Virus record (IMG/VR): IMGVR_UViG_3300033120_001005
Span: 1 to 64,000 of that record
Direction: 5' to 3' (one strand)
Length of the DNA: 64,000 bases
Source: a virus
Taxonomy: Duplodnaviria; Caudoviricetes
Shown here: positions 11,401-61,150 of the stretch, in pieces
How the letters are laid out: the number at the start of each line of letters is the position of its first letter
Numbering within the stretch: position 1 is the stretch's first letter
Translations under genes and position numbers: made by a program
Notes under the pieces: generated by a model
The model's input: the letters and a program-made list of their open reading frames with translations, nothing else
Database searches by the model: none
Told to the model about the DNA's origin: nothing

Positions 11401-13573
11401 ACATTGATTTACTGTATGCTGGTAATGTTTTGTATAAATATTGATTTACCCAATTTTTGTAACCATTGTTTTTTAATTTATTTGGAATACTTGGTTCGGT
11501 ATCTACACCAATTCCTTGAGTTGTTTTTACAAAAGAAATATTAGAATTTAAAGGTAAATCAGCGCGTAATTTATACTCTTCTGTAAAATTTGAAATAATC
11601 ATTCGATTATTTATTTGAGCTATGTGTTTTACATTTAAAGGTATTCTTTTTCTAATTGTAACTTCTGACAATTCAAAATTTCCTTCAACAACATTATTAG
11701 CTCCAGAATGCGTGCATGAAAATGAATATTTTTCTGTTTCACTTAATTTATTTTGATAAATACAGTTTACAATTTTTGAAGATGATCCTGAAATATATTC
11801 AATACTAAATACTCTTATGTAATTGTAACGTTTATCAATATTAGTAATTAAAACATTTATTGATTCAGTTGTTTTTGTTCCGGGTTCAGCGCCTCTGTAA
11901 GAACCATCTATTTCATCATTTGGCTTAGGATATGTTGCAGTTTTAATATCTGTTCCAACCAAACCCTCAACACCAAAATAAGATTGTCCTATCATTACAG
12001 GATTTGTATGTTGGCTTGCTCTAGTCCAAATAAAACCATCAATTGATAATTCAAAACAAAACTGATAAGCACCACATAATAATGAACCACCTGATTTTGA
12101 TACGCGATTAACATTAATTTCTCCAAAATTACAAGGCTTAAATAATCTTGTGTTTATTTCAATATCATTTGTAGGTATATCATTTAAATTTAAAAGTCGA
12201 ATGTGCCCTTTTCCTGAAGTCCAATATATACGCAAATTGTTTTCATTATCATATTTTGCAAAACCATTTATTTTACAATCTTCGTCAATATCAATAAATT
12301 CTTCTGTTTCTAACAAAGGAGTTACTTCTACTTTTTTATTTTCAGTATTAATTAAAACAATTAATGTGCTTTCATTTCCAATTGATAAAAACATAATACA
12401 TTTAAATTTATCAATTCCAATAGCACCATTTTGTCTATAAGCCATTGTTTTAAAATTTTGAGCTGCTTTGTATCTTTGAATCGTTAGACCATAACCAAAA
12501 CCTATAGGCTCCATTTCAATAATTAGTGGCTCTTCATCATTAGTTCTAATAAACTCAAACATTGGTGTAGATATTGGATCCGCTTCATCATCAACACTCA
12601 TTTTAAATACTGTTCCTTTTCCACCATTGTAGTTTCCATAAGGTATTGTTGTATAAACTATTCCACCAGAATATACAACATAGTTTTTTCCGTTTCTTGT
12701 ATTTCTACATAAACCATACGGATAATCATCGCTAAATGGATTTAAATTATAATCACTGCCCGGAATAGGGTATTCAGGTGCATTTGGATAACCTAAATTT
12801 TCATAAATAGAACCTAAACCAAAACCTATTCTATTTTTAGAAAAATAAAGTGGAGTTTCAGCTGTCATTCCTTTTTTGTTTTTTATGACAATATTTGATG
12901 TTTTATTTGATGCAATTGTAATTTGACAATATTTACTAATTCCATTTGTAGCATATACACCACGCGAACCATACAATCCATTACTAGTATTTACATTATC
13001 AATTTTTAAATTGTAATAATAGGCTAAAACATCATGCATTTTAGCCAATTTATCCGAGTAAGATATTAAATTAAATGTTGTTTCATCAGCCCATGCAGTC
13101 ACTCCTAATATTGACCAAGATATTTTTAAATCATATGCTGAAACATTTCCTGAACTATCTTTTACAACAATTTGTTTAATCAATAATTCAAAAGGTGGTG
13201 AAGTATTTTCTACATTACTAAAATCTGATTTATATGCTTGAAATTGTAAAACATATTCATAAGTTCCGGTTTGTGAATTACCTATTACTTGAGATATGTT
13301 TGTGTTTAATTTTTTAGCAAACATTCTATCATCAAACATATATACATTTGCTTTTGCTGCCAAAGCTGTACCAATAGAGCCATTTTTATTAGGAATACTA
13401 AATGTTTTTGTTACACCACTCATAGAAGTCCATGAAAACAAATTTTCTCCTATTTGAGCAACTCTACCATTAAAGTTGTCTGCCATTGCTCCTTTTTCAA
13501 TGTCAATATTAATTTGATTGACATCACTAACTATACCAGCAAATTTTTTTTGGTTTGTTTTATTTGATTCCAT
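8447..13573 (-). CDS. Tail muzzle/stabilisation protein (P22 gp10-like, crAss type), 1708 aa
   Basis: Large beta-rich protein with crAss-muzzle-like segments (GGSLLCGAYQFCFEL; AKSMYAWIYIDEYGNESEPS-type motif; NNHLLVQQQFGFRKY); follows the ring-protein genes. Confidence 0.7.
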   Translation of the reverse strand: MESNKTNQKKFAGIVSDVNQINIDIEKGAMADNFNGRVAQIGENLFSWTSMSGVTKTFSIPNKNGSIGTALAAKANVYMFDDRMFAKKLNTNISQVIGNSQTGTYEYVLQFQAYKSDFSNVENTSPPFELLIKQIVVKDSSGNVSAYDLKISWSILGVTAWADETTFNLISYSDKLAKMHDVLAYYYNLKIDNVNTSNGLYGSRGVYATNGISKYCQITIASNKTSNIVIKNKKGMTAETPLYFSKNRIGFGLGSIYENLGYPNAPEYPIPGSDYNLNPFSDDYPYGLCRNTRNGKNYVVYSGGIVYTTIPYGNYNGGKGTVFKMSVDDEADPISTPMFEFIRTNDEEPLIIEMEPIGFGYGLTIQRYKAAQNFKTMAYRQNGAIGIDKFKCIMFLSIGNESTLIVLINTENKKVEVTPLLETEEFIDIDEDCKINGFAKYDNENNLRIYWTSGKGHIRLLNLNDIPTNDIEINTRLFKPCNFGEINVNRVSKSGGSLLCGAYQFCFELSIDGFIWTRASQHTNPVMIGQSYFGVEGLVGTDIKTATYPKPNDEIDGSYRGAEPGTKTTESINVLITNIDKRYNYIRVFSIEYISGSSSKIVNCIYQNKLSETEKYSFSCTHSGANNVVEGNFELSEVTIRKRIPLNVKHIAQINNRMIISNFTEEYKLRADLPLNSNISFVKTTQGIGVDTEPSIPNKLKNNGYKNWVNQYLYKTLPAYSKSMYAWIYIDEYGNESEPSQPFELELDFRKLKNIKYNNNWSHPNGVINWNKFYLSAESWDLAIAKSNQQSLYSDEIEYETRKITGGYELYAYGLNIKVNNPTWPNWAKKAILVEKKQQLNNSYSPTEGFGILTQTGIKMAYLPDADGYNVYNNYNFKQGDKIRILNVSAYTIKGNALYNDPTTYFFCHNNNYINSNRFYFDIVSFKQQIYPKPSESGFKVGEDKMPDETINMRAFDISFNINNDIYNELLAAGGIPSDNLKGIVKFQIERENSSTNEDIEEYTKTNFEIDLTKRYNGNYKRAFIGNNYISTNHQIVTMRNNYFRTEYLNVTAGYYNFTKGFNPVIVNPLITKFNMAMADDSVFPFLRINPVINNFTAYGFKKINRDYAAENNLNNYKYISQEFLKPRSKFDNIIMYSNPTVIGRIYDSYVDINPINSLEVQSDFGQIIAVFYFNNHLLVQQQFGFRKYVIDSKEFVQTTNGTMITITSGNFISSVPLDLSTTFGSYYPGIKGEKGIYFVSSQHQIFCLATEKEIILLSVLTGFQNELSKFEIVEDTRNVWTFNDVILFKDKEENMIYLYIVSRKSYKILSISQPMIISKTLSQPKIGEKYSYLRNNTGTTVLQTILVTDISVNAVGYLIEFDVISEVPYKLDKLQILTLYLTDTKSPELYSFNENYDFLEYRSSNLRINQHLEKIFVDTQFGNQINIESSESEFHYDNVNTDLKVPMDSCLWNNLFYPNKNVVISENTTLNNLATNFVLSIPNGIPANQNYYLLSSNKEFHFLKGVKYTIQFNISFPSGGGMSSPQKLFFGPVYDVLKLNANPIGINDFLDAAYPASSVNEYSFIPHTSFIAPLSLLFVNNTNTYNGLIFCLKLLKFDYTEQFESYPVMYVTNGKSEMISYDNLILTVKEENVPNRIEIYSKEQEENLIISNPNTYGKLRLRQFQMAIPKLNTKERLRSTYFTIKFVYTFNKIKNVINSLESYIRTL

Positions 13574-13575
13574 TA

Positions 13576-14265
13576 TTAAACGTTATTAAAGTTGTTTTTA
13601 TTTCCAGTTTTTAAACTAGCAGGCACTTTACTTTCATAAATTTTACCTATATTAATTAATTCATCAAATGATGGAAAATCAACCGATGTTGTGGCGTTAA
13701 TTTCTTTTTCTTCTGCTTCTTTTCTAAATTCTCTTAACAATTCAACACCGCGGCCATTTGATTTAATTTTATTTTTCATTTGTTTATATTCCATACGTGC
13801 AATAATTGCATCTTGAAATTGTTCAGGAACATAAAGCTCACCATCTACTAAAGGAACTGTTTTATATTCCATAGTGTATTGTTTTCCATCAAGGTTATAT
13901 GTACCACCTATTACATTAAACATAATATAATCACCTACAAGTTTAGCTTGATATTTTGTGTCACTTCCTTTGGTAACATTACCTCTTAAATGTTTTTGCA
14001 TGCCATGAACATTTACAGCTTCTCCATCAACATTTAAATTCTCAAATTCACAATAATCTTCAGGTAAAACAATCATATTGTCTTTTATTTTACCAGTTGT
14101 TTCTAATAGTGTTTTGGTAGAATTTGTTTTTGAATAAAGGTCATTAGCAATTCTTTTAATTTGTCTTTCAATTATTGGAATTGCTGCTTCACCTTCAGCA
14201 AAATTATCAATATCATCTAAGTAACTATCAATTACAGTACTAATTGGAATAAATTTGTTTATCAT
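13576..14265 (-). CDS. Tail ring/tubular protein
   Basis: IVLPEDY...YKTVPLVDGELYVPE...DAIIARMEYK pattern; immediately upstream of the muzzle gene. Confidence 0.55.
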   Translation of the reverse strand: MINKFIPISTVIDSYLDDIDNFAEGEAAIPIIERQIKRIANDLYSKTNSTKTLLETTGKIKDNMIVLPEDYCEFENLNVDGEAVNVHGMQKHLRGNVTKGSDTKYQAKLVGDYIMFNVIGGTYNLDGKQYTMEYKTVPLVDGELYVPEQFQDAIIARMEYKQMKNKIKSNGRGVELLREFRKEAEEKEINATTSVDFPSFDELINIGKIYESKVPASLKTGNKNNFNNV

Positions 14266-14897
14266 AAATTTTTTATTTTTTTTGAATATTCGGAAATGTT
14301 TTCAAACCCTATGTCATACATCAAACTATTGCTGATCATATTGTAATAGATTTCATTTAAAAATGCTTTGTCTTTTATTTTTACTGAAAACCATTTTTTG
14401 TCAACAACGTTTAATAATCTGTTTTCAAAGAATTTTTTTTGCCATTGTAAAGTTATAATTTTTTTAGGCAAAATCTTATTGAACTTTTTGTAACGTTTTT
14501 TAATTACAGTGCTTTGAACCTTTATGATGCCTAAATAATGTGGAAGATTAACCACTTCACCACTAAATAATTTATTTTTTAAAACAAAAAAATAAACTCC
14601 TAATTCTTCCATAAATTCTGAAAATGACAAAACATTGCCATGGCCATATGTTAATACAGCGGGACAATGTTTAAGTAAATAGTTGTATAAAAATAATTCG
14701 TCTATTATTTGAATTACTTCTGTGGGCTTTTCTGTTGTAGAATTATACAGATAATGCGTTGGCTTATGCGCTGATTGGTGAGCGTATCTATTTGCGTAAA
14801 TAGCTGCTAATTGAAAATAAAGTTTTTTGTTATTTTCATTATTCCTGTTCTTGCATTTTTTGGACAGGAAAAGGTGGTATGGAATTGTTTGCTTCAT
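14262..14897 (-). CDS. IHF/HU-like protein of the crAss-type structural module (start uncertain)
   Basis: LFSGEVVNLPHYLGIIKV resembles the IHF/HU beta-arm motif; crAss-like phages carry IHF-like genes at this position. Alternative start at 14839 with a frameshift (see findings). Confidence 0.45.
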   Translation of the reverse strand: MKQTIPYHLFLSKKCKNRNNENNKKLYFQLAAIYANRYAHQSAHKPTHYLYNSTTEKPTEVIQIIDELFLYNYLLKHCPAVLTYGHGNVLSFSEFMEELGVYFFVLKNKLFSGEVVNLPHYLGIIKVQSTVIKKRYKKFNKILPKKIITLQWQKKFFENRLLNVVDKKWFSVKIKDKAFLNEIYYNMISNSLMYDIGFENISEYSKKIKNL

Positions 14898-15498
14898 CTA
14901 CAGTACCGTTTTTAAGTAATTTTATATCCAAATCCTGTACTATTTTTTTAATCAAATTTACTGTATTTCCAGAAACAGGAAAGTCAGTTGTTTTTTCGTC
15001 AAAATTTGGAAGTATTGTAGGATCAAATAAAATACATTCAAGAACAATTTCATTAATTGCATTCATTGAATATATTGTTAATTTGTTACCAACTCTATAA
15101 CAAATAGGTCTATTTTTATTACGATAAATGTTTTTTCTTAAAGTAGTTATGCGCGTTTTTTTTACCAATTCATAATACTCTAATTCGTTTGGGTCATTAC
15201 CAAGTCCTTTAACTCTTAAACCTAAATCATTTTTCAGATAAACAATTTTTGGCAATTCAACTGTGTATATTTTTTCCCCTGATATATTATCAAGGTTTTG
15301 TACTGTTAATGGATATTCAGAAAATATTTCAGGGTCAAATTCTTTTTTTGTTACAAAATCCATTTCAATTGCATTGGCTCTAGCGTCCAATACAATTTGA
15401 TTGAAAAATGATGAATTTAATTTTGAATCATCTGGCTTTGGTCCTTTAAACAACAATGTTGTTATTTCAGACCTTAATAACATTAAAGTAACTTTCAT
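14839..15498 (-). CDS. Putative neck/ring structural protein
   Basis: Synteny; IVLECILFDPT...DFPVSGNTVNLIKK resembles C-terminal motifs of crAss ring proteins. Confidence 0.5.
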   Translation of the reverse strand: MKVTLMLLRSEITTLLFKGPKPDDSKLNSSFFNQIVLDARANAIEMDFVTKKEFDPEIFSEYPLTVQNLDNISGEKIYTVELPKIVYLKNDLGLRVKGLGNDPNELEYYELVKKTRITTLRKNIYRNKNRPICYRVGNKLTIYSMNAINEIVLECILFDPTILPNFDEKTTDFPVSGNTVNLIKKIVQDLDIKLLKNGTVDEANNSIPPFPVQKMQEQE

Positions 15499-46425: not shown

Positions 46426-47131
46426 TATGCTTAAAGGTTCAATATTTGAATATTGGGCTACTGGTGGAACTTCTTCTGAAATTGTCCCTAATATGTGTGA
46501 CAAATGGATGAAATCTAAAAACAACAAAATTGGCAGGTTAAAAAACGAAACCATAGAAAAAATCTATGATGCTGCTATGTCAGCTAAAAAAATCTTTGTT
46601 GAAACCATTTATGCCAATGAAGAATTTAGAATTGATTTAAAGCCAGGCTTTGAACTTGTTTTTCACCCTGACGTAATAGGTACAATTACGTTGCCAGATT
46701 ACCCAAATCCATTTGTTGCTATTGTTGATACAAAATACACAGCATCAATTAATGAAGTTTGGAATGTAAAAGATAAGCAAAAAGACTTTTTGCAAGCACT
46801 TGTTTATGTTTATGGTTTTTATCATTGGACGTTAAAAGTTCAAGGTAAAGGGGTTCATTTACCTTTTGTGTATCATATTACTGAACACAACGATTTCAAC
46901 AAACCATTACACAAAACAATTGTGTTAAAAGTATCAGAAACAAACTTCCTACAGTTTGAAAAATTACTTGAATCTATTATGAACGATACTGAATTTAAAC
47001 CTACAGCGCATGATTTTAACTGTATTGGTAAAGGTAATTCATTTGGAGCATGTAGATTTATTGATTTTTGCGAAGAAGGAAGAAAATTAATAAACAAAAC
47101 AGAAGAATATAATTTTTCAGATTTAACCTAA
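46283..47131 (+). CDS. PD-(D/E)xK exonuclease (Cas4/RecB-like)
   Basis: YSTLKDYPAC, HPDVIG, IVDTKYT, QALVYVY, C-terminal C..C..C. Confidence 0.8.
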   Translation: MAVIKITSKKEKKITLRYSTLKDYPACAKRYHLSTLHQPKFKQKTENDMLKGSIFEYWATGGTSSEIVPNMCDKWMKSKNNKIGRLKNETIEKIYDAAMSAKKIFVETIYANEEFRIDLKPGFELVFHPDVIGTITLPDYPNPFVAIVDTKYTASINEVWNVKDKQKDFLQALVYVYGFYHWTLKVQGKGVHLPFVYHITEHNDFNKPLHKTIVLKVSETNFLQFEKLLESIMNDTEFKPTAHDFNCIGKGNSFGACRFIDFCEEGRKLINKTEEYNFSDLT

Positions 47132-48693
47132 TGGTAGAAGTAAAAAAAACCAGAACAACAAAAAAAGACCAGTTAAATGAACGTCTTTTAGAAGTTATTC
47201 ATCAAGGTAAAATTCCACCTCAAACTATAGAAATGGAAAAAATTGTTCTTGGAATGATATTGTTACAAGAAGATTCAATTTATAAAGTTTCTCCTTTGCT
47301 TACAAGTGAAATGTTTTACAAACCAGAACATCAGAATATATATAAAGCAATTTCTAATCTTTATCGTTTAAAAAACCCAATTGATATAATTACTGTTTCT
47401 CATGAGTTAAAAAAATTAGGTCTTTTAGAAGAAACTGGTGGTGCATATTATGTAACAAGTTTAACTACTAATTTAGCAACAAGTAGAAATACTGAATATT
47501 ATGCTCTTGTTATTCGAGAAAAATGGATTTGTAGGGAAGTTATATCTAAACTTTTTGTAAATGCAAATTTGGCATATGAAGATGATACAGATGTTTTTGA
47601 TTTAATTGCTAGTACTAAAACGTTTCTTACGCATTTAGAACAAGACATAAACACAACATCATCATCTATTAAAGAATACTCAGCCAATGTTCTTAAAGTT
47701 GTTGAAGAAAACAAAAAGCCAACAATAGGCCATGGTACAGGTTTAATATTGTTAGATTATAGAACTGGTGGTTTTCAAAACACAGATTTAATTGTAATTG
47801 CTGGTAGGCCCGGAAGAGGTAAAACAATTTTATTGATTCATGGTGTAAGAGAGTGTTACATTAAAAAAGTTCCTAGTGCTATTTATACCTATGAAATGTC
47901 AGGCGAACAATTAGTTCATAGATTAATATCAAGTCACCTTAAAATTGATAACAATGCATTACGAGCCAACAAACTATCAGAAGAAGAAAAAGGATTAATT
48001 AAAATATTTCATGAGGATATATATGACAAAATTTTGATTAACGACAAAAACCCTAATTTATATGAATTATTAAATTCCATGGAAAGGGACGTTATAGAAA
48101 AAGGTGTTCAGATTTTCTTTATTGATTATTTACAATTAATTCCTACTCCAAAGGATTTAGAAAGAAAAACCAGAAATGATTACATTGGAATAGTATCATT
48201 TGCTTTAAAAACATTTGCAAAAAAACATAATGTTCCAATAGTAGCTTTAGCTCAGTTATCACGAGAAAGTGAAAAAAGAACTAAAGATGATGGTTTTACT
48301 GATTATATTATGTCAGATTTACGAGAATCAGGTTCGCTTGAACAAGATGCAGATATGGTTTTGTTTGTTGATTATAGTGAAAAAACTGGTAAATCACGCG
48401 TTCAGTTTGGCAAATTTAGACATGGCGCCCTTGCAAAAGTTTCTTTAAAATTTGAAGGTAAATACGTAAGGTTTCTAAATGATGAAGACGATTCTACTAC
48501 CCGTAAAGCTATGGCACATTATGAGCAATTTGGAGAAATCAGTGTAACTTTTGAAGAAGATTTAAAAGCAACAACAGCAGCAAAACCAACAGAAACAACA
48601 ACACTTACAATAGAAAGTGTTCCTTATTTTTATCGTGACCCTACAGAAGCAGGTCAAGATGATGTATTACCTGATACTGAATCACCATTTTAA
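47131..48693 (+). CDS. dnaB: Replicative DNA helicase DnaB
   Basis: IPPQTIEMEKIVLG, Walker A AGRPGRGKT, FIDYLQL, LAQLSRESE, LRESGSLEQDAD. Confidence 0.95.
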   Translation: MVEVKKTRTTKKDQLNERLLEVIHQGKIPPQTIEMEKIVLGMILLQEDSIYKVSPLLTSEMFYKPEHQNIYKAISNLYRLKNPIDIITVSHELKKLGLLEETGGAYYVTSLTTNLATSRNTEYYALVIREKWICREVISKLFVNANLAYEDDTDVFDLIASTKTFLTHLEQDINTTSSSIKEYSANVLKVVEENKKPTIGHGTGLILLDYRTGGFQNTDLIVIAGRPGRGKTILLIHGVRECYIKKVPSAIYTYEMSGEQLVHRLISSHLKIDNNALRANKLSEEEKGLIKIFHEDIYDKILINDKNPNLYELLNSMERDVIEKGVQIFFIDYLQLIPTPKDLERKTRNDYIGIVSFALKTFAKKHNVPIVALAQLSRESEKRTKDDGFTDYIMSDLRESGSLEQDADMVLFVDYSEKTGKSRVQFGKFRHGALAKVSLKFEGKYVRFLNDEDDSTTRKAMAHYEQFGEISVTFEEDLKATTAAKPTETTTLTIESVPYFYRDPTEAGQDDVLPDTESPF

Positions 48694-49422: not shown

Positions 49423-49616
49423 GGTAAGTATCATCTTTCCTTATCCAATTATTATTTTCAATTACTTTGAAGAAATATTGTTGCTTAAAAAATGTAAAAC
49501 CCTTCTTAATGAAGGGGTTTATTTTTTTGGCTATAATTTAGAAGAATTGGATTACAGTGTATTTGCTGAGTTTCAAAATTATCCTAGAATTGTATATAAA
49601 ATAGAAATAGAAAGTA

Positions 49617-50072
49617 ATGAAATGGACTCAAAAATCATTAAATAATTTAGGATTTGAATTAAATGATGGTATAGCAAAAAAAACAAATAAAAAATCAGTA
49701 CAAAAAAAACCTTCACAAAAAAAAATTAATAAAGTTATTGGCAATCTTCAGGAAAAAGCAAAAGACAAATTACAGCTTGATCCAAAAGATTTTATTGAAT
49801 TAGCCCTTAAAAACTCAAAATGGTATTGGGTAAAAGAATATCAATTTGATACTGAACGTAAGTTTAGGTTTGATTGGGCTATTCCTGAACTTAAATTCTA
49901 TTTTGAATACGATGGTTTAGTATCAGAAAAAAGTGGCCATACTACTTTAGTAGGCTATACAAAAGACACAGAAAAAAGATCGCTGGCAACCGATTTAGGT
50001 TGGAATGGAAAACATTACACTATTCTTAACTACAAAAACATTATTGCCGACCTTAACAAACTAAATAAATAA
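49617..50072 (+). CDS. DUF559/Vsr-like endonuclease
   Basis: KEYQFDTERKFRFDWA...FEYDG...GHT...YTKDTEK...LGW. Confidence 0.75.
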   Translation: MKWTQKSLNNLGFELNDGIAKKTNKKSVQKKPSQKKINKVIGNLQEKAKDKLQLDPKDFIELALKNSKWYWVKEYQFDTERKFRFDWAIPELKFYFEYDGLVSEKSGHTTLVGYTKDTEKRSLATDLGWNGKHYTILNYKNIIADLNKLNK

Positions 50073-50074
50073 TT

Positions 50075-50587
50075 ATGCAAAACTTCATTTTAGCACTTAA
50101 AGACGTATTAGATGTTTCAGATTTAAAATTAGTTATTGCCTTAGATGGCAATAACGTAACAATTCAAATTTCTCCAAAAGCAAAAGAAGGAAATACTGAT
50201 TTTCCATCATTAAACTTTGCTGGCCATATCAATACTATTGATGATAAATTTGGTGAACAATTAGCATCTAAGCTTAAAAAGAACCTTCCACTAATTAGCA
50301 ATATTAATGTTTACGATAAAAACCTTGCTAAATTAGAAGAAAGTAAAAAAATTGAAGTTACTAAAAAAGCAACTGAAAAAAAGCCGGAAACTAAAAAACC
50401 AACAGTTGCCAAAAAAGAAACATCAGGTTTAGAACTAAAACCTGAAGAATTAGGTAAAGAAAATGATGATGATGATGAAAATAACAGTCATGCTGAACAA
50501 CAAAATACAGTTGCTAATTTAACAGAAGAAAAACCTGAACCAAAAACAGAAGAAACAACAGCACCAGCACAAGAAAAATTATTTTAA
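50075..50587 (+). CDS. PRTRC system protein E-like
   Basis: Pattern of LKLVIALDGNNVTIQISP...PSLNFAGHINTIDDKF followed by a charged low-complexity tail; directly upstream of the Ubl. Confidence 0.75.
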   Translation: MQNFILALKDVLDVSDLKLVIALDGNNVTIQISPKAKEGNTDFPSLNFAGHINTIDDKFGEQLASKLKKNLPLISNINVYDKNLAKLEESKKIEVTKKATEKKPETKKPTVAKKETSGLELKPEELGKENDDDDENNSHAEQQNTVANLTEEKPEPKTEETTAPAQEKLF

Positions 50588-50595
50588 TTAGCAAT

Positions 50596-50799
50596 ATGGA
50601 ATTTACATTAATAAGAAGAATATTTGAATTTGAAGGTCAAGAATATAGTGACCCAAACCCTAATATGAGTATTGATAGAGCTAAAGCATTTTTAGCAAAT
50701 GAAAAACCTGCTATTATAAATGCCACTGTTCTTTCTGATACTACACAAGGTAACAAAAGGATAATTAAATTAGGTAAAAATGCCGGAACGCATGGATAA
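50596..50799 (+). CDS. PRTRC system protein C, ubiquitin-like protein
   Basis: RIFEFEGQEYSDPNPNMS...PAIINATV...GKNAGTHG-stop matches the family's R.F...DP.P..S...P.L.TA.V...GTKG pattern; C-terminal Gly. Confidence 0.85.
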   Translation: MEFTLIRRIFEFEGQEYSDPNPNMSIDRAKAFLANEKPAIINATVLSDTTQGNKRIIKLGKNAGTHG

Positions 50800-50995
50800 C
50801 CAAACAAAAATTATTTCCGTACTTCAATTAAGTTTGAAGTACGGAAATAAAACTGAGAAAGAAATAAAATCAGAACAAGAAAATCAGAACAACGAAGAGT
50901 ATAAAGAACAGTATAAAGAAATTAAATTTATAGTTCTACCATGGAATATGACTGGAAAACCATTAGAAGCAAAATTCAAAAATCCGGTATATTAA
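50792..50995 (+). CDS. Small protein of the PRTRC-like operon
   Basis: ATG at 50792 overlaps the Ubl stop region. Confidence 0.5.
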   Translation: MDNQTKIISVLQLSLKYGNKTEKEIKSEQENQNNEEYKEQYKEIKFIVLPWNMTGKPLEAKFKNPVY

Positions 50996-51894
50996 CTGAA
51001 GTAAAAGTTGTACCTCAATTATATGACAATCATACAGGACTTAGTGAACTGGCTTGTTATATGATTTGGATATCTGAATATAAAAATTATACTTTTAAAG
51101 GTAATTCACTTAAAGAATATGTTCAAGAAGTAACACAACAATTACAAGAAGATGATGAAAACCTTGATTATTTCTTTCAAAATAATCAACTTACTGTAAT
51201 TCACGAATACATTGAAAGCCCTAAACAGTATATCAATTTATTGGCACTTTACAAATTCTTTGATTACAATCTTGATGCTACAAGTTATTTTTGTTATTAT
51301 TTAGAAACTAAAGGTATTGGTTTTATTCATGAGGTTAATGATATGTTTCCATTTGAATCATTTTGTGAAATGGAAATGTCAGAAGAAAACTCGATACTTA
51401 ATGATTATTTTTCTGAAAATTTTCCTCAAATAGCTAAAATTAAATTTGAAAAATATAACGATGGAACTGCTTTTGCTACTGGTTGGGATTTTGTTTGTAC
51501 AAAAAAACCAAAAAATTTAACTGCTCCTCAAAAAGATTTAATTAAACGTTGGGAAAAATTATTTAAAAACTTTCATTTAGGAGATTGTATAATTAATCCA
51601 AATGCTTTTGAAGAAGACTGTTTAATACCAACTGCATATTTACGAGTTGGTATTGGCAATGAACCAGATTTTTATCAACATAACTACAATTATGATGTTT
51701 CAGATTTTGTTATTGAATCTATAATTACACTTAATACGGATAATTTATCAAAAGAATTTAATTCCTATAATTATGACGGGCATGACGGGCTATATTTTAG
51801 AGTTATTTTAGATAAAAAAAAACAAGAAAAAATAAAACAATCTATTTTTGAATTTAATAACCTATATAACGAATTATGCAATTTGACGGTTTAG
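50941..51894 (+). CDS. Acidic protein in the PRTRC-like operon (protein F position)
   Basis: Position between the Ubl and E2 genes; no recognisable catalytic motif. Confidence 0.45.
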   Translation: MEYDWKTIRSKIQKSGILTEVKVVPQLYDNHTGLSELACYMIWISEYKNYTFKGNSLKEYVQEVTQQLQEDDENLDYFFQNNQLTVIHEYIESPKQYINLLALYKFFDYNLDATSYFCYYLETKGIGFIHEVNDMFPFESFCEMEMSEENSILNDYFSENFPQIAKIKFEKYNDGTAFATGWDFVCTKKPKNLTAPQKDLIKRWEKLFKNFHLGDCIINPNAFEEDCLIPTAYLRVGIGNEPDFYQHNYNYDVSDFVIESIITLNTDNLSKEFNSYNYDGHDGLYFRVILDKKKQEKIKQSIFEFNNLYNELCNLTV

Positions 51895-52460
51895 TTACTC
51901 CAAAACACGTTTTGGTTTATTACGATGATAAATACAGCGAATACGCTAACGTAGAAAACGGTGAGATAGGTGCATTTAAACCTATAACAAAAGATTTTTT
52001 ACAAAAAATATCAATTCAAACAAAAATTGGTGAAACATTATGCGGTGTAACTCCTAAAAATTTAGTTGGTTACATTCCTATTATCAATAGTTATAGAATT
52101 GTATTTACAACACCAGAACAAACAAAAACCATTTATCATACATCAGGAGAATTAAAAATTAATTTTCCAAAGATGATTTGGTTTTACGATAAGAATAAAG
52201 ATCATTTAGAAATATTTAAATACGATACATTGGCTAAAAATGCCATAATGATTCCTATTAATTTTTCAAATGTTAATAGTGGAACTGTTTGTATTGGTAC
52301 GTGTCCAAGGCCAAAAAGTCAAACATTTAAAGAAGTAATCAAAGAAACTCAAGAAATGTTTTTTGATGGAAAATTTAACCATGATCAGATAAAAATTACT
52401 TATTCAAAATCAAAAGAAAATTTATGGAAAACAGTTTTGAAATTCACAAATACTTATTAA
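51876..52460 (+). CDS. PRTRC system protein B, prokaryotic E2-like (family D)
   Basis: GAFKPIT, PKNL, FPKMIWF, and NFSNVNSGTVCIG (putative catalytic Cys in the N..G.VC.G motif). Confidence 0.8.
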   Translation: MQFDGLVTPKHVLVYYDDKYSEYANVENGEIGAFKPITKDFLQKISIQTKIGETLCGVTPKNLVGYIPIINSYRIVFTTPEQTKTIYHTSGELKINFPKMIWFYDKNKDHLEIFKYDTLAKNAIMIPINFSNVNSGTVCIGTCPRPKSQTFKEVIKETQEMFFDGKFNHDQIKITYSKSKENLWKTVLKFTNTY

Positions 52461-53152
52461 ATCCCGGACACCCAATTACTATTAATGTAGTTGGAGCTGG
52501 CGGCACTGGTGGTTATGTTGTAGGCGATTTAGCAGCATTGCATTTGTATTTAATTAACACTGGCCGTCCTGGATTAATGGTTACAGTTTATGACCCTGAC
52601 AATGTAACTGAATCAAATGTTGGAAGACAAAATTTTAATTTTTCTGATATAGGAGAAAACAAAGCTATTTGTTTAGTCGAAAAATACAACCGATACTATT
52701 CTTTAAATTGGGAAGCAAAAGCTAAATATTATGACCTAAATTTTGCAAATATTACCATTGTATGTTCTGACACAGTAAAATCAAGATGCGAAATTGCTAC
52801 TCATTTTAAAGAATCACCAAAATTTTACAATCGTTTATATAGTGATAGTATCAGACCTTATTTATTAATTGATTGTGGCAATGGTTACGATTTTGGTCAA
52901 GTCATTGTTACTAGATTTAAAACTGAAGATAAAACTTTTATTGATCATTTTCCTAATTTACCTGAGCCAAAAGAAACACACAGTTGTTCAATGGCAGAAA
53001 GTTTATTGAAACAAAATTTGTTTATCAATAAATTCATTGCAAATTTGGCTATAAATTGGCTTTACACAGGAATTAGGGAAACACAGCAAACTAATTTAGG
53101 TTATTTTTTTAATTTTAACGGAATTATACCATTACAATATGAAAAAGTTTAA
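52424..53152 (+). CDS. PRTRC system ThiF-family E1-like enzyme
   Basis: HKYLLNPGHPITINVVGAGGTGG, DPDNVTESNVGRQ, IDCGN, SCSMAESLLKQNLFIN (putative catalytic Cys). Confidence 0.92.
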   Translation: MENSFEIHKYLLNPGHPITINVVGAGGTGGYVVGDLAALHLYLINTGRPGLMVTVYDPDNVTESNVGRQNFNFSDIGENKAICLVEKYNRYYSLNWEAKAKYYDLNFANITIVCSDTVKSRCEIATHFKESPKFYNRLYSDSIRPYLLIDCGNGYDFGQVIVTRFKTEDKTFIDHFPNLPEPKETHSCSMAESLLKQNLFINKFIANLAINWLYTGIRETQQTNLGYFFNFNGIIPLQYEKV

Positions 53153-53360
53153 ATATGCTGGTATGAATATGCTTCCATTTACAATGGAAAATGATGTTAA
53201 TGTTATGTATTTTGGTGTTCAAACAATGAAACAATGGGATCATTTTTGGTGGAATGAATGGAATAAATTAAATACGGAACTTAAGACTAAAAAACCCAAC
53301 ACAACTTGCATGGTTTCTAAACGAGGTCCTAACAGAATAAAACCTAAAAAAAGAAAATAA
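53139..53360 (+). CDS. Hypothetical protein
   Basis: Coupled ORF. Confidence 0.55.
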   Translation: MKKFKYAGMNMLPFTMENDVNVMYFGVQTMKQWDHFWWNEWNKLNTELKTKKPNTTCMVSKRGPNRIKPKKRK

Positions 53361-53932
53361 TGTTTCTTACAACTGAAGAATTAAAGCTTTTTTACGATGC
53401 TTCTAACAAAGGAATATCGTTTGATGAAGCATTGCTATTGTTAGCACCTGAAGAATCAAAAAAATCATTTTTGCAGGTCCAGGAATATGCTGTTTTTTAC
53501 ATGGAAAAAAGAAACGATGAAGCAATTCTTATTAACATGAATAATAATGCCGAATTGTTAAATAAAATTTTTTCATTAATGAACCATATTAAACAAACTT
53601 ACGCTTCAACTTTAGAAGCTATTGAAAGCTGTAATGGAAATGTTTTATTTGCTGACATAAAAAATGATGCTGTAACAGGATATTTTGATAACAATTACCC
53701 TAATCCATTTAATGAGGAATTTAATGTAAAAAAAGATTATCGAATTAACTATTCAATGAATGTTTATCATGGCATTAAAGTAGCTGTTGATGCAGACAAT
53801 GAAACTGCATATTTTATGGCAGAAATTGAAGGACAAATTTTACAAACTAAACAATTTAATATTTCAAAACTTTATGAACAATCAAGAGAACTTAAGGCCT
53901 ATCGTGCCAAAGGAGACACGACTTCAAATTAA
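53360..53932 (+). CDS. Hypothetical protein
   Basis: TAATG coupling. Confidence 0.6.
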   Translation: MFLTTEELKLFYDASNKGISFDEALLLLAPEESKKSFLQVQEYAVFYMEKRNDEAILINMNNNAELLNKIFSLMNHIKQTYASTLEAIESCNGNVLFADIKNDAVTGYFDNNYPNPFNEEFNVKKDYRINYSMNVYHGIKVAVDADNETAYFMAEIEGQILQTKQFNISKLYEQSRELKAYRAKGDTTSN

Positions 53933-56003
53933 AAAATTTGGTGACGAATTAGCTATCAGAACAACCTCACAATTATCAGAAAACAATTATTATAGAATTG
54001 CTTTTTGCCAATGGTTTTTTTCATTAGATGATAATGAATACAACGAAAAAAAACGCTGGTATTTAAGAGCACAAGACAACACTTTGTACACTGGTATTTT
54101 AATGGATAGAGCCGTTAAAGAAGTTCTTACAGGCAAAATTAGCAGTTATTTAAACAATTGGGAAAAGCACGTTAGGAGAATTAATGTTCCAGTGTACATT
54201 AATAACAGAATAGTTTATAAAGATTGGGACAAAGAATTTGAAACAGAAGTTTTAAACCCTATTGAAGACCCTTTTAAAAGTGTACCCGCTGCTGGTTTTG
54301 ACCTTGAGCATTTAAAATATTTAGCTGATGAAATGGCTATTATTAAAAAAGATATTGAAGAATTTAGATCAAAACGTGTTTGGAATCAAATATTTTTCTA
54401 TAACAATAAATTTTTTCTTTGTTTTCCATATTCTGCTAATATGGTAGTTAATGTAAAAAGCTCATTTACAAGTTACAAATGGCGCTCAGAAGAAAAATGG
54501 TGGGAAATAGATTCTTCAGAAAAAAAAGCTATTCGAGATTTTGCTTTAATGCATAAATTTTCATTTCATAAAAATGCTACTGAATTTCTTTTTGGTAATG
54601 CTGAAAAAATCAATGCTTCTCAAATGGTTGTATCTGATTTTAAAGTTAATGGTTTTAAAATAGAACCATATCCTTATCAAAATGCTGGAATACAATTTGG
54701 CAATAAAGCTAAAAAAATACTTATTGCTGATGAAATGGGACTTGGTAAATCAATTCAATCAATTGGAATTGTGATGTCACATTTGTCTTTTCCTTGTTTA
54801 GTAGTGGCACCAAAATCGTTACTATACAATTGGGAAAATGAATGGAAAAAATTTACTAGCCATAAACCATATGTATTTTATAATTCAAAATATCCTTTAG
54901 ATACCGTTTTGTCTATTGCCAATGTTGTTATTATTAACTATGAAGGAGTAAAAAAACTTTTACCTTTTAAAGATAGATTTAAGTCAATTATTGTAGATGA
55001 AAGTCATAATGTAAAAAACGACAAAACAAAACGTTTTACTGAGGTTTTAGAAATGGCTACTGGCAAAGATGTTAGATGTTTACTTACAGGTACTCCTATA
55101 ATGAATGCACCAGCTGAATTAATACCTCAATTAAAAATTCTTGATATGCTAAAAGATATAAATACTGAAAAAAAATTTAGGGATAGGTATTGTGGCAAAC
55201 ATGGTGGAGATAACCTTGACGAATTAAATATCAAATTACGCAGTTCTGTAATGATTAGGCGCGAAAAAAAAGACGTGCTTACTGATTTACCTGATTTGGT
55301 AAGAAATTATGTTAAAGTTGACATTACCACGCGCGAAGAATACAATAGAGCCGAAAATGACTTTGTAAATTATCTCAAAGAAGTTAAAGAAATGAGTGAC
55401 CGAAAAATTAAAGCTGCTATGAACGCTGAAATTTTGGTTAAAATGGGTATTCTTAAACAAATATCAGCACGAGGTAAAATTGAAGCTATTCTTGAATATT
55501 GTAAAAGTGCTTTTGATGAAAATCAAAAAATTATTCTTTTTGGATATCACCGCGAAGTGCTGCATGAATACACCAAACGTTTAAATTCCAATTTACTTAT
55601 TACTGGAGCCACAAAAATTGAAGATAGACAAAAATATGTTGATATGTTTCAAAACGACCCTAAACAAATGTCAATCTGTTTATCAATTAGGGCTGCATCT
55701 GTTGGTTTAACTTTAACCGCTTCTAGTAATGAAGTGTTTGCAGAATTTGATTGGACATCAGCAATGCATGACCAAGCTGAAGCAAGAGCTCATCGTATTG
55801 GCCAAAAGAACTCAGTTAGTGCTAATTACTTTGTTGGTATTGATACTATTGATTCTGACATTGTAGAATTAATCAATTTCAAAAGAAACATGATTAATGA
55901 AATGACCGGAACAAAACACAATGTTTCTGAAAACAGCACAATTATTAAGGATTTGCTTAAAAAACGTTATAATTTTGAACCTGAAGGAGAAATTCAAGCA
56001 TGA
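53874..56003 (+). CDS. SNF2/HARP-like (SMARCAL1-type) helicase
   Basis: PYPYQNAG, ADEMGLGKS, IVDESH, LLTGTP, QAEARAHRIGQ. ATG at 53874 is preferred (track start 53787). Confidence 0.9.
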   Translation: MNNQENLRPIVPKETRLQIKKFGDELAIRTTSQLSENNYYRIAFCQWFFSLDDNEYNEKKRWYLRAQDNTLYTGILMDRAVKEVLTGKISSYLNNWEKHVRRINVPVYINNRIVYKDWDKEFETEVLNPIEDPFKSVPAAGFDLEHLKYLADEMAIIKKDIEEFRSKRVWNQIFFYNNKFFLCFPYSANMVVNVKSSFTSYKWRSEEKWWEIDSSEKKAIRDFALMHKFSFHKNATEFLFGNAEKINASQMVVSDFKVNGFKIEPYPYQNAGIQFGNKAKKILIADEMGLGKSIQSIGIVMSHLSFPCLVVAPKSLLYNWENEWKKFTSHKPYVFYNSKYPLDTVLSIANVVIINYEGVKKLLPFKDRFKSIIVDESHNVKNDKTKRFTEVLEMATGKDVRCLLTGTPIMNAPAELIPQLKILDMLKDINTEKKFRDRYCGKHGGDNLDELNIKLRSSVMIRREKKDVLTDLPDLVRNYVKVDITTREEYNRAENDFVNYLKEVKEMSDRKIKAAMNAEILVKMGILKQISARGKIEAILEYCKSAFDENQKIILFGYHREVLHEYTKRLNSNLLITGATKIEDRQKYVDMFQNDPKQMSICLSIRAASVGLTLTASSNEVFAEFDWTSAMHDQAEARAHRIGQKNSVSANYFVGIDTIDSDIVELINFKRNMINEMTGTKHNVSENSTIIKDLLKKRYNFEPEGEIQA

Positions 56004-58575: not shown

Positions 58576-59361
58576 ATGAAATATTTAACAGGAGATGATA
58601 CCACTAAATTAAAAGGCTGGATTTCATTTTACCCAACATTTAGTAACGGCCTTTATTTAGAAAAAGCAGCATACTTTGATGAACGTCCTACAATTGTAGG
58701 AACTATAACTTCTATTTTAAGTTTAATAGGACTATTAATACTGCCATTTTATTCATTATGGTGGTTATTTTTAGTTGTTTTTTTATTTGTTGGTTGGGGA
58801 CGTGTATTTATTCATTTGCCAATTAAAACGGGAATTCAAGATTGCGACAGTGCTGCATGGGGTTTTAATTACCATGGTAATAAAATATGGCTTTATATTG
58901 GTGGTAGTGGTAATTATGAAGGCGGCAGAAAATGGAAAACATTTACTATGCCTTGGGATCCAACATGGATAAGAAGATCAACTTTAATTAAAGGTAATCC
59001 TAATTATTGGCATCATGAAACAAAAAAAAATCCAAAAGAATGGAATGGTGTTAATGTAGGAAGTTACGAATGGTTAAAAATTTATAAATATAAAGAAACG
59101 CATCCTTATATTGATTCTTATGACGGCACAACTGTTAATGCAACACTATCAATGGTTGAAACGGAATGGCGCCCTTTATGGTTTCAATGGACCTCATTAT
59201 TTGCTAAAAAAAGTACTTTTATTGATATAGAATTTGATCAAGAAGTTGGAAAACAAAAAGGTGAATGGAAAGGTGGTTGCATTGGTTGTAATTATGAAAT
59301 AAAAACTGGCGAAACAATGTTGCAATGTTTAAAACGAATGGAAAAAGAACGTAAGTTTTAG
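58576..59361 (+). CDS. Trp-rich hypothetical protein with one or two TM segments
   Basis: IITSILSLIGLLILPFYSLWWLFLVVFLFVGWG hydrophobic stretch. Confidence 0.6.
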   Translation: MKYLTGDDTTKLKGWISFYPTFSNGLYLEKAAYFDERPTIVGTITSILSLIGLLILPFYSLWWLFLVVFLFVGWGRVFIHLPIKTGIQDCDSAAWGFNYHGNKIWLYIGGSGNYEGGRKWKTFTMPWDPTWIRRSTLIKGNPNYWHHETKKNPKEWNGVNVGSYEWLKIYKYKETHPYIDSYDGTTVNATLSMVETEWRPLWFQWTSLFAKKSTFIDIEFDQEVGKQKGEWKGGCIGCNYEIKTGETMLQCLKRMEKERKF

Positions 59362-60229: not shown

Positions 60230-60775
60230 TTATTTTATTAATCCTTCTGCTTCAATTAACAATAATGCAATTTCTTTAGCTACTTTATTGATATTAATAA
60301 CGTAAGAATTCATATCATTTGAATTTGAAATAAAACAAACTTCAATTAATATGTTAATTCCTTTTTCACGCATAATACCAAGTGTTCCATGTTGACTATC
60401 ACCTTCGGTTTTTACACCACGATTTTTTATTTTCAGCACGCTTGACAATATTACAGTCAATTTACGTGCAATTTCTTGTTCTTGAATTGTAAAACGTGTA
60501 GGAATTAAAACTTCTATACCAGTAGCAGATGCAGTTCCTGCATTAAAATGTAAATCACAAACAACATCTGTTTCATTACTATTTATTTTTTGCAGCACTG
60601 TTACTAAATTATCACTATCTGAATCACTTTGAACAACAACATTTAATGCTTTACATTCAGCAATAATTAAATCACGTAATTGAGCTGTTAAATTAGCTTC
60701 TTTAAATCCATTTCCTATTGCTCCTGGATCTGGTTTTAATCCTTTTGGGTTGTGGCCTGCACTTAAATAAATCAT
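60230..60775 (-). CDS. Endolysin, N-acetylmuramoyl-L-alanine amidase (Amidase_3)
   Basis: YLSAGH, EANL, LHFNA, ILIEVCFISN zinc/catalytic motifs. Confidence 0.92.
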   Translation of the reverse strand: MIYLSAGHNPKGLKPDPGAIGNGFKEANLTAQLRDLIIAECKALNVVVQSDSDSDNLVTVLQKINSNETDVVCDLHFNAGTASATGIEVLIPTRFTIQEQEIARKLTVILSSVLKIKNRGVKTEGDSQHGTLGIMREKGINILIEVCFISNSNDMNSYVININKVAKEIALLLIEAEGLIK

Positions 60776-60781
60776 AGTTTG

Positions 60782-61150
60782 TTATTTTTTGATAAATTGT
60801 TTAAATAAAGATTTTCCTGTTATATCCCTAAAATTTTCGTCTAGGCTTTTTACTTCAATAAAAGCAATAAGCCCTGAAACTATTTTTAACACTTCAATGT
60901 CTTTTAAAAAATTTTGTTGAAAAACATGCGCTACTAAAATAGCTATCATATAGCCAATACCTTTGGTTATGGTAGGCCGCATTTTTTTACTGGAAATTTC
61001 TTCTCCTCGTTTTTTTGCAGCCATTATTCCGGTTACAAAATCGGCTACTAAAAAAAAGCCAATTGCCAACATCATAGGATAAGCTGGGCTAAAATAACTT
61101 ATCATATATGCCAATACCGGCAGTGCGTATTTATGTAATAATTCTTTCAT
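60782..61150 (-). CDS. Holin (phage holin 4_1-like)
   Basis: ADFVTGIMAAKK...SKKM..TITK...IEVKSLDEN; TM helices; adjacent to the amidase. Confidence 0.85.
   Translation of the reverse strand: MKELLHKYALPVLAYMISYFSPAYPMMLAIGFFLVADFVTGIMAAKKRGEEISSKKMRPTITKGIGYMIAILVAHVFQQNFLKDIEVLKIVSGLIAFIEVKSLDENFRDITGKSLFKQFIKK

Follow-up and report, generated by a model that had tools for sequence, protein, structure and literature searches.

A putative minimal ubiquitin-like conjugation cassette of the PRTRC family, without a JAB peptidase, on a probably virulent, distantly crAss-like phage

Layout and family membership of the cassette

This work describes a compact gene cassette on a viral contig, IMG/VR record IMGVR_UViG_3300033120_001005 (Duplodnaviria; Caudoviricetes), that very probably belongs to the PRTRC (ParB-related, ThiF-related cassette) systems. 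These systems, predicted bioinformatically long ago, are named for their association with ParB on plasmids and integrative and conjugative elements (ICEs), where they are widespread. The window, by which we mean the whole stretch of DNA analyzed here, is the first 64 kb of this 74.3-kb contig, whose completeness is about 59%. At positions 50075 to 53152, on the plus strand, it carries five real, translationally coupled genes encoding protein E, a ubiquitin-like modifier (Ubl), a protein of 317 aa here called X, an E2-like carrier protein, and a ThiF-type E1 (Table 1). A preliminary description of this DNA, made from its letters and open reading frames (ORFs), had counted six tightly coupled genes. 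All six ORFs and their motifs are present and the coupling is tight, with a gap of 8 nt between E and Ubl and overlaps of 19 nt between X and E2 and of 37 nt between E2 and E1, the last of which leaves no gene between the two enzymes; the sixth ORF, of 71 aa, is a doubtful gene, as discussed below.

The PRTRC-type assignment was supported by profile hidden Markov model (HMM) searches. E1 matches the PRTRC_ThiF model TIGR03736 at 164.7 bits (cut-off, 144.75) over profile positions 10 to 234 of 245, and Ubl and E2 exceed the Pfam gathering thresholds, 25 in both cases, of Prok_Ub (PF14454, 45.4 bits) and Prok-E2_D (PF14460, 44.6 bits). TIGR03738 also aligns with Ubl from end to end, at 38.2 bits and below its cut-off of 45.95. 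The scores of protein E fall just below or below threshold (Table 1), and iteration of a local HMM, started from the window clade, links it to protein E of 80 loci, including the RefSeq-annotated gp07 of Ralstonia phage Dina. With Ubl as PRTRC protein C and E2 as protein B, the gene order E-C-(slot)-B-(A)-ThiF is that of Dina gp07 to gp02 and of about 100 other loci. Since E1, Ubl, and E2 pass curated or Pfam cut-offs and the gene order matches Dina, the identification of a PRTRC-type Ubl/E2/E1 cassette stands. The ORFs of 317 and 71 aa gave no match in Pfam, NCBIfam, PHROGs, or PADLOC; the PHROGs search returned no family for E, Ubl, X, or E2, and a blastn search of the region against 50,697 phage records returned no match. 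A sigma-70 promoter scan gave counts below the shuffled expectation (25 versus 30.9), the scan being uninformative for a Bacteroidota-type host.

The residues expected of an activating and a carrier enzyme are conserved. In a set of 17 E1 proteins drawn from the phage clade and from Bacteroidota PRTRC systems, the invariant or near-invariant positions comprise GxGGTG, Asp57, Asp59, Asn65, Arg68-Gln69, Lys80, Asp116, Arg121, and Cys188-Ser189. When Escherichia coli ThiF and MoeB were added to this alignment (MAFFT), every adenylation residue aligned, with Asp116 opposite Asp127 and Asp130 and Cys188 opposite the crossover-loop cysteines Cys184 of ThiF and Cys187 of MoeB, a placement suggestive of an equivalent crossover-loop role for Cys188. 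CxxC zinc motifs are absent from E1, and ThiF equivalog models score it at 15 to 25 bits (cut-offs, 152 to 437). Its nearest structures are the adenylation domains of UBA6, Cap2, and UBA3 (E values around 1e-6 to 1e-4). Across 107 distinct E2 homologs, Cys139 is conserved in 100%, Asn132 and Pro98 in 99%, and Gly141 in 98%; Cys139 aligns with the cysteine of Dina protein B, and E2 accompanies E1 in 88 of 88 loci. The activation-conjugation pathway called apparently intact in the preliminary description thus keeps its candidate catalytic cysteines, E1 Cys188 and E2 Cys139, both of which are invariant.

Table 1. Features of the cassette and of its surroundings in the window
Feature	Positions	Strand	Basis
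PRTRC protein E homolog, 170 aa	50075..50587	+	PF19556 25.5 bits (gathering threshold, 26); TIGR03741 24.2 bits (cut-off, 37.95); iterated HMM
Q-E-K-L-F-stop, C-terminal short linear motif on E (beta-clamp-binding-like)	50570..50587	+	Tail conservation
Ubl modifier (PRTRC protein C / Prok_Ub), 67 aa, ...NAGTHG-stop	50596..50799	+	PF14454, TIGR03738
Small ORF, 71 aa, doubtful gene; overlaps Ubl end, hairpin, and X start	50780..50995	+	
RNA hairpin, 17-bp stem, directly 3' of Ubl stop	50811..50850	+	Folding z = -7.3
Protein X, 317 aa, clade-restricted orphan between Ubl and E2	50941..51894	+	
E2-like carrier (PRTRC protein B / Prok-E2_D), 194 aa, NVNSGTVCIG, candidate Cys139	51876..52460	+	PF14460
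Minimal ThiF-type E1, 242 aa, GAGGTGG, DPDNVTESNVGRQ, SCSMAE	52424..53152	+	TIGR03736
DnaB	47131..48693		
GC-rich short hairpin, T-runs on both sides	49497..49520		
151-aa gene directly upstream of E	49617..50072	+	phrog_503 (E 3e-13)
73-aa ORF overlapping the E1 gene end	53139..53360	+	
SNF2 helicase	53787..56003		
261-aa protein, "CBASS inhibitor Acb3"	58576..59361	+	PF25187, 109 bits, E 3e-31
N-acetylmuramoyl-L-alanine amidase	60230..60775	-	PF01520
Holin	60782..61150	-	PF05105

Phage setting and lineage

The window encodes a major head protein, a portal protein, and the large terminase subunit (TerL) at 17 to 24 kb, and the cassette sits between the DnaB and SNF2 helicase genes, in the replication module, as had been described from gene positions. 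Given structural and replication genes on the same contig and phage genes on both flanks, we agree with the earlier view that the cassette is phage-encoded. The major head protein (24 to 26% identity) and TerL (23%) resemble those of "uncultured phage crNN_1" (Crassvirales) records, matches also being found to Flavobacterium phage proteins; phrog_11589, phrog_6547, and phrog_6681 are matched in the window, and giant ORFs of 1708 and >1926 aa are present. The term crAss-like therefore applies in a broad sense, on the strength of crAss-type head and TerL similarity, and the phage is too distant for assignment to Crassvirales with the tools used. It is probably a virulent, distantly crAss-like phage of a Bacteroidota-type host.

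As the contig stems from metagenomic assembly and the nearest bacterial homologs of the cassette lie on ICE-like elements, the locus might be imagined to be ICE DNA misjoined to a phage contig, or a decaying passenger. The GC content, however, is uniform across the region (0.28 to 0.30), and the block formed by DnaB, small genes, E, Ubl, X, E2, E1, small genes, and SNF2 recurs in the related loci L004, L005, L007, and L115 and in a JGI contig, which are independent assemblies from different samples with E1 proteins 48% to about 90% identical to that of the window. In L006, from a more distant phage (E1 39% identical), the cassette is kept and its neighborhood is different. Purifying selection acts on all five genes: comparison of the window with L115 gives a ratio of nonsynonymous to synonymous substitution rates (dN/dS) of 0.10 for E1, 0.14 for E2, 0.25 for X, 0.28 for E, and 0.41 for Ubl. 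In a quick E1 tree, the 11 sequences of the window clade are monophyletic on a long stem, with 100% support in the Shimodaira-Hasegawa-like approximate likelihood ratio test. Because synteny holds across at least five independent assemblies, with flat GC, phage flanks, and purifying selection, the cassette is not an ICE/phage chimera, and the notion of misassembly or inert cargo is already effectively refuted.

The absence of a JAB peptidase and of ParB, first noted for the window, now extends to the whole 74-kb contig, where searches found no JAB (PF14464), PRTRC_A (TIGR03735), PRTRC_D (TIGR03739), PRTRC_F, or ParB (TIGR03734 / ParB_N). The cassette is also carried by three crAss-type genomes that CheckV rates as complete, namely, G001 (139 kb, with terminal repeats), G022 (83 kb), and G041 (78 kb, with terminal repeats), and by G028, which is 98% complete; none of the four contains a JAB, ParB, PRTRC_D (ParM-like), or tyrosine integrase gene. 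These observations bear on whether the cassette could be a plasmid-style maintenance or partition module that aids segregation or persistence of the phage genome. The PRTRC name and the ParB association behind it would suit such a role, and a 2026 paper uses the term "partitioning cassette" (PMC13366799). That paper itself states that the function was not studied, and neither the window contig nor the four near-complete carriers encode ParB, PRTRC_D, or a tyrosine integrase; we regard a partition role in this lineage as very improbable.

Several neighboring features were recorded alongside the cassette. The 151-aa gene directly upstream of E, which has a weak homing-endonuclease PHROG match in addition to phrog_503, is 95% identical in L115, and a RusA-family gene occupies the equivalent position in L007. 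The short hairpin before that gene resembles a bidirectional terminator, possibly delimiting transcripts ahead of the cassette. At the other end, the 73-aa ORF has no counterpart in L115, which is ~90% identical and carries a 190-aa gene directly 3' of E1; this ORF probably lies outside the cassette and may be a non-gene. Further downstream, a minus-strand lysis pair (60230 to 61150) marks the switch to minus-strand late genes.

Anti-defense genes also occur nearby. The Acb3 gene belongs to the same array of co-directional genes as the cassette and follows it at a distance of ~5.4 kb; Acb3 was rejected as a part of the conjugation system, being described in the literature as an inhibitor of the cGAS/DncV-like nucleotidyltransferase (CD-NTase). 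Within ~8 kb of the cassette, L004 has a Tad2-like gene (2076 to 2402, plus strand; PF11195, anti-Thoeris family) and L006 has a Gad2 gene (13240 to 13881, plus strand; PF26128, anti-Gabija family). With such genes near the cassette in its relatives, this phage group therefore keeps known anti-defense genes near the replication module.

Conserved and variable parts of the cassette

Related loci were gathered from IMG/VR. A search with a single-protein query found nothing; an alignment query was needed and recovered at least 237 viral contigs that encode an E1 of the PRTRC type. Locally built HMMs revealed a near-universal order of E, Ubl (67 to 75 aa), a protein of 300 to 430 aa, E2, and E1, the last two without an intervening gene. 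Prok-JAB was found in 0 of the first 50 related IMG/VR records, which were searched whole and 19 of which are at least 90% complete; as positive controls, phages Dina and BgVeeders33 were both detected by the same search. Chromosomal ICE-like cassettes of Bacteroidota (Chryseobacterium, Sphingobacterium, and Flavobacterium; 16 scored) likewise all lack protein A and lie beside a DUF932 gene. Protein A is confined to a small, mostly GC-rich, Dina-like group outside the Bacteroidota. Lack of a JAB peptidase is thus the norm in Bacteroidota-type PRTRC systems, ICE-borne copies included, rather than a peculiarity of this phage.

The form of the modifier follows the presence of the peptidase. A C-terminal extension of Ubl is present in 7 of 7 JAB-bearing loci, and Ubl ends at a Gly-stop in 89 of 90 JAB-less loci, 75 of which have GTKG (Fisher p = 6e-10, for a JAB group that comprises a few lineages and not independent events). 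We read this to mean that JAB, where present, at least matures Ubl, and that a Ubl encoded in mature form makes JAB dispensable and would leave tagging unreversed by a cognate peptidase.

The same pattern bears on a reading in which no protein is tagged, and Ubl instead acts like ThiS or MoaD as an acyl-adenylate or thiocarboxylate carrier for modification of a small molecule, nucleotide, or DNA, the cysteine of the "E2" serving as a sulfur or acyl relay. The minimal ThiF/MoeB-type E1, the alignment of Cys188 with ThiF Cys184, and a Ubl ending in Gly as ThiS and MoaD do would be in keeping with such chemistry, as would a DNA methyltransferase and other DNA-modification-type genes in the same phage. 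The extended Ubl of JAB-bearing relatives, however, points to peptide-bond processing of a protein modifier. In addition, an E2/UBC-family protein with invariant Asn...Cys-x-Gly stands beside E1 in all 88 loci, and no cysteine desulfurase, rhodanese, ThiG/MoaE-type partner, or CxxC zinc site accompanies it. We therefore consider a carrier function quite improbable.

Protein X occupies a slot whose content changes from lineage to lineage. The preliminary description called it F-like; this label reflected position only, since X has no NCBIfam or Pfam match to PRTRC_F (TIGR03742 / alpha-hel2 PF14456) and compares with Dina F at a BLASTP E value of 0.45 and an hhalign probability of 0.1. By these same four tests, X was also rejected as a JAB protein or as the common ~380-aa slot protein. 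An exhaustive HMM search of 1.84 billion representative proteins yielded five relatives, all in the same phage clade, and one additional match that was weak and repetitive. Members of this clade whose E1 proteins are 39 to 60% identical have X proteins 20 to 32% identical, with no conserved Cys, His, Ser, or Asp suggestive of an enzyme, and an ESM Atlas search for X gave only template modeling (TM) scores below 0.3. In 98 loci, the position between Ubl and E2 is filled by 19 unrelated BLAST clusters, the largest of which accounts for 64 loci of the ICE/provirus type and the others of which have few members or just one; a slot family of its own is seen in nearly every crAss-type lineage. For the slot proteins of ~380 aa at other loci, NCBIfam searches gave no match, TIGR03742 included, and the L095 copy has no Pfam match. 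As a conserved enzymatic core thus surrounds a replaceable middle gene, X is a candidate specificity or adaptor factor.

Directly after the Ubl gene, the transcript would form a hairpin that none of 200 shuffled sequences matched in folding. Strong hairpins lie in the same place, in unrelated sequences, in L115, L004, L005, L007, and L006 (z from -4.0 to -6.7; 0 of 200 shuffles), and one compensatory change from A-U to G-C is seen between the window and L115 hairpins. A hairpin with z <= -3 is present in 14 of 100 loci, concentrated in the window clade, L006, and four of five IMG/VR records with a crAss-type terminase; its standing as a general PRTRC feature was rejected on this count. Partial termination or 3'-end stabilization, giving more E and Ubl message than enzyme message, is a plausible role, and such an excess would suit a modifier that is consumed. 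The 71-aa ORF proposed as a sixth gene overlies this hairpin and is probably a reflection of the conserved RNA structure rather than a gene: its counterparts are of 63 aa in L115, with a dN/dS of 0.59 (the weakest constraint), and of 52 aa in L004, and L005 and L007 have no equivalent ORF. One or two small ORFs of 56 to 88 aa lie between Ubl and the slot protein in L060, L063, L073, L074, and L077, as does a 61-aa ORF in BgVeeders33.

Protein E is composed of a folded domain and a flexible tail. In an AlphaFold2 model built from a 62-sequence alignment, residues 1 to 100 have a predicted local distance difference test (pLDDT) score of 85 to 97 and residues 113 to 146 a score below 50; the N-terminal domain is predicted to contain two short helices, a three-stranded sheet, and a long helix, and the remainder to be disordered. 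Fold searches with the N-terminal domain returned only middling hits, the best being T7 Gp1.2 (VIA Z 7.1, root mean square deviation of 2.4 over 74 residues; Foldseek E 0.03), with HPF/RaiA-like proteins at Z of about 5. Homology to either was rejected, as these values lie below the stated reliability bar of the tool; the hits were taken to reflect a common alpha+beta arrangement.

The tail of E is Lys-rich, then acidic, and ends in ...APAQEKLF. The QEKLF tip is identical in L115 despite indels in the linker; L004 ends in QSKLF-stop and L007 in QAKLF-stop, and L005 has PAGLFA before an acidic end. More broadly, ...[S/T/N]LF occurs in the tail of 52 of 96 distinct E proteins, most others ending in acidic runs. 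Among the 93 contig ORFs of at least 80 aa, E alone has Q..[LM]F within its last 12 residues (0.275 expected). The bacterial beta-clamp-binding consensus is QL[SD]LF, which the tail motif resembles, and recruitment to the replisome or clamp through E is a tentative possibility.

Proposed pathway and comparison with known systems

We lean slightly toward the view that the cassette is a working, minimal, JAB-less form of the PRTRC-family Ubl-conjugation pathway on a probably virulent, distantly crAss-like phage, and judging from its sequence it probably conjugates Ubl to proteins. Every chemical step, the direction of transfer, the roles of X and E, and the target are what we infer, as follows. 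Ubl would be translated in mature form, terminating at Gly67. The ThiF-type E1 would adenylate Gly67, accept Ubl on its crossover-loop Cys188, and hand it to Cys139 of E2, which would discharge it onto lysines of target proteins chosen by X, by E, or by both. Protein E would act as an adaptor, with its folded N-terminal domain serving the system and the Q-x-x-L-F end of its disordered tail possibly docking on the host sliding clamp or a replisome hub. With no deconjugase present, tagging would run one way and Ubl would be consumed, and the hairpin after the Ubl gene may keep E and Ubl transcripts above those of the enzyme genes.

A number of observations weigh against this proposal. In the literature searched, there are no biochemical data for any PRTRC system, and a sequence search found no PRTRC component with a solved structure. 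Among the profiles put forward in the preliminary description, TIGR03736 and Prok-E2_D were matched above cut-off, but TIGR03737, TIGR03738, and TIGR03741 were matched below their curated cut-offs only; E2 reaches just 32.5 bits against TIGR03737 (cut-off, 131.45), which makes it a divergent member of protein B. The confident profile-profile alignment of E1 to ThiF covers residues 24 to 135 only, and the match at Cys188 comes from the MAFFT alignment, in a weakly similar region. The AlphaFold2 model of X, from five sequences, is unusable (pLDDT 48.6), and X has no family link. The LF motif is absent from 44 of 96 E proteins, and the partner of the Q-x-x-L-F tail could equally well be another component of the system instead of the clamp. 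The window hairpin has no clear U-tract, so that it is at most a candidate attenuator.

A deconjugase of another kind must also be considered, as the contig is about 59% complete and a peptidase of another family could lie off it. BubE belongs to the DUF6527 family of Ubl-deconjugating serine proteases of Bub systems (PMC11601596). L004 encodes a 91-aa DUF6527/BubE-family protein (14710 to 14988, minus strand; 65 bits) beside a lysozyme gene. DUF6527 occurs in 3 of 50 PRTRC-bearing viral records, those of L038, L039, and L049, and in the L038 record it lies ~2 kb upstream of protein E. Neither the window contig nor any of the complete crAss-type genomes encodes a member of the family (PF20137). 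With so few carriers among the 50 records, and none among those complete genomes, DUF6527/BubE was rejected as a systematic stand-in for JAB.

Two purposes can be envisaged for such a pathway; those suggested in the preliminary description, among them a counter-defense decoy and the tagging of host proteins, are conjectural. The host Ubl systems Bil, Bub, and Cap2 of the cyclic oligonucleotide-based antiphage signaling system (CBASS) have recently been proved antiviral, and the same chemistry in viral hands could serve counter-defense, by tagging host immune proteins or by pre-empting or poisoning Bil, type II CBASS, or Bub, with the hypervariable slot protein and E2 as the arms-race interface. 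This purpose is compatible with all the data. It would account for the 19 unrelated slot families and draws on several further observations: a 2026 preprint reports that a diversity-generating retroelement acts on PRTRC protein B in a Phocaeicola prophage (bioRxiv 10.64898/2026.10.01.756045), the arrays that hold the cassette in the window, L004, and L006 also contain known anti-defense genes (Acb3, Tad2-like, and Gad2, respectively), and the bacterial cassette stands beside DUF932 in an ICE-like, establishment-type context. Yet the cassette is surrounded by genes for replication instead of forming part of a typical accessory island, neither PADLOC nor sequence searches link it specifically to components of Bil, Cap2, or Bub, and the neighboring anti-defense genes are circumstantial only, so that we hold counter-defense to be a possible but doubtful purpose. 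Alternatively, the cassette might be a takeover device in which the tail of E parks the E2~Ubl machinery on the host clamp, X works as an E3-like specificity factor, and host replisome-associated or DNA-bound defense proteins are irreversibly tagged with a ready-made Ubl supplied in excess; this more specific scheme appears unlikely.

Should such a takeover operate, it would give a function to the long-unexplained PRTRC family and would represent the first defined virus-encoded Ubl conjugation pathway in prokaryotes. More generally, a complete conjugation pathway on the virus side would be the natural missing counterpart to the antiviral Ubl systems of hosts. The favored reading, a minimal conjugation pathway, is attractive for experiment because it involves only five genes, a Ubl that needs no processing, and no deconjugase, so that conjugates should accumulate and be easily detected. 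Comparison with relatives supplies handles in Gly67, Cys188, Cys139, and the slot protein as the likely specificity element, as well as in the E tail peptide as a candidate docking motif and the hairpin as a likely control of expression ratios.

PRTRC systems of phages have been documented before. The RefSeq record of Dina has E, C, F, B, A, and ThiF annotated, two 2026 papers report such systems, and at least 237 IMG/VR contigs carry them; one of the papers describes a PRTRC cassette both in BgVeeders33 and in a prophage of Burkholderia gladioli and says that its function is unstudied (PMC13366799). Among 63 deposited phage records sharing the capsid type of the window, none has a PRTRC E1, and in the literature searched no paper ties crAss-like phages to ThiF or to a ubiquitin-like system. 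Within that literature, the crAss-type JAB-less lineage, the strict covariation of Ubl terminus and JAB, the hypervariable slot, the LF tail of E, and the hairpin after Ubl are undescribed.

Among the better-characterized systems, E. coli ThiF/ThiS and MoeB/MoaD share with the window a minimal E1 of ~250 aa, aligned GxGxxG, Arg, Lys, Asp, and crossover-loop Cys positions, and a carrier ending in Gly. The window E1 differs in having no zinc CxxC, an obligatory E2 partner, and no biosynthetic partners. Bil (BilABCD) resembles the cassette in its separate Ubl, E2, and E1 and in the Ubl-lysine conjugates expected without an E3. Bil is a host defense with a JAB protein (BilC), two ubiquitin-like domains in BilA, and a multidomain E1 (BilD) (PMC11601596, PMC11354881); the cassette has a single 67-aa Ubl domain, no JAB, and a minimal E1 of 242 aa, and no PADLOC Bil model matches it. 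Type II CBASS Cap2/Cap3 (JAB) shares the E1 adenylation fold, with partial matches of 14 to 26 bits confined to E1 residues 18 to 110. In Cap2, however, E1 and E2 are fused and the protein conjugated is the CD-NTase itself, whereas the window has separate E1 and E2 proteins and no CD-NTase, effector, or Ubl of that kind. Some Bub (6E/DUF6527) types are JAB-less and combine small Ubl, E2, and E1 components. Bub E1 and E2 proteins have no catalytic Cys and form Tyr/Ser oxyesters (PMC11601596), unlike the window, in which both the E1 and the E2 cysteines are invariant and DUF6527 is absent from the contig.

The closest parallels lie within the PRTRC family. Dina (NC_055026.1, gp07 to gp02) and BgVeeders33 (OK665841.1) carry the phage-borne order E - Ubl(C) - slot - E2(B) - ... 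- ThiF, with an E2 Cys that aligns with that of the window and E1 proteins 28 to 30% identical to it. In addition, these two have protein A (DUF2016 + Prok-JAB) between B and ThiF, an extended Ubl of 129 aa, and an alpha-hel2-type protein F; they are GC-rich Burkholderiales phages of ~33 to 39 kb, and the window has no A, no F, and a finished Ubl. The established picture is unchanged by our analysis, and these culturable JAB-form phages are probably the quickest way to a phenotype. Bacteroidota ICE-like PRTRC cassettes (Chryseobacterium artocarpi, L095; Sphingobacterium multivorum, L098) and those of many IMG/VR proviruses have the same five-gene JAB-less layout, with a Gly-stop Ubl of ~70 aa, E1 proteins 31 to 36% identical to that of the window, and E tails that often bear ...SLF. 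They differ in having a slot protein of ~385 aa that belongs to one large family, a DUF932 gene upstream, an E2 of ~235 aa, and mostly no hairpin, in contrast to the orphan X, the 194-aa E2, the hairpin, and the DnaB-SNF2 position of the window clade. In all, the cassette is a stripped-down variant of the known bacterial PRTRC system and a useful experimental lead, not a first.

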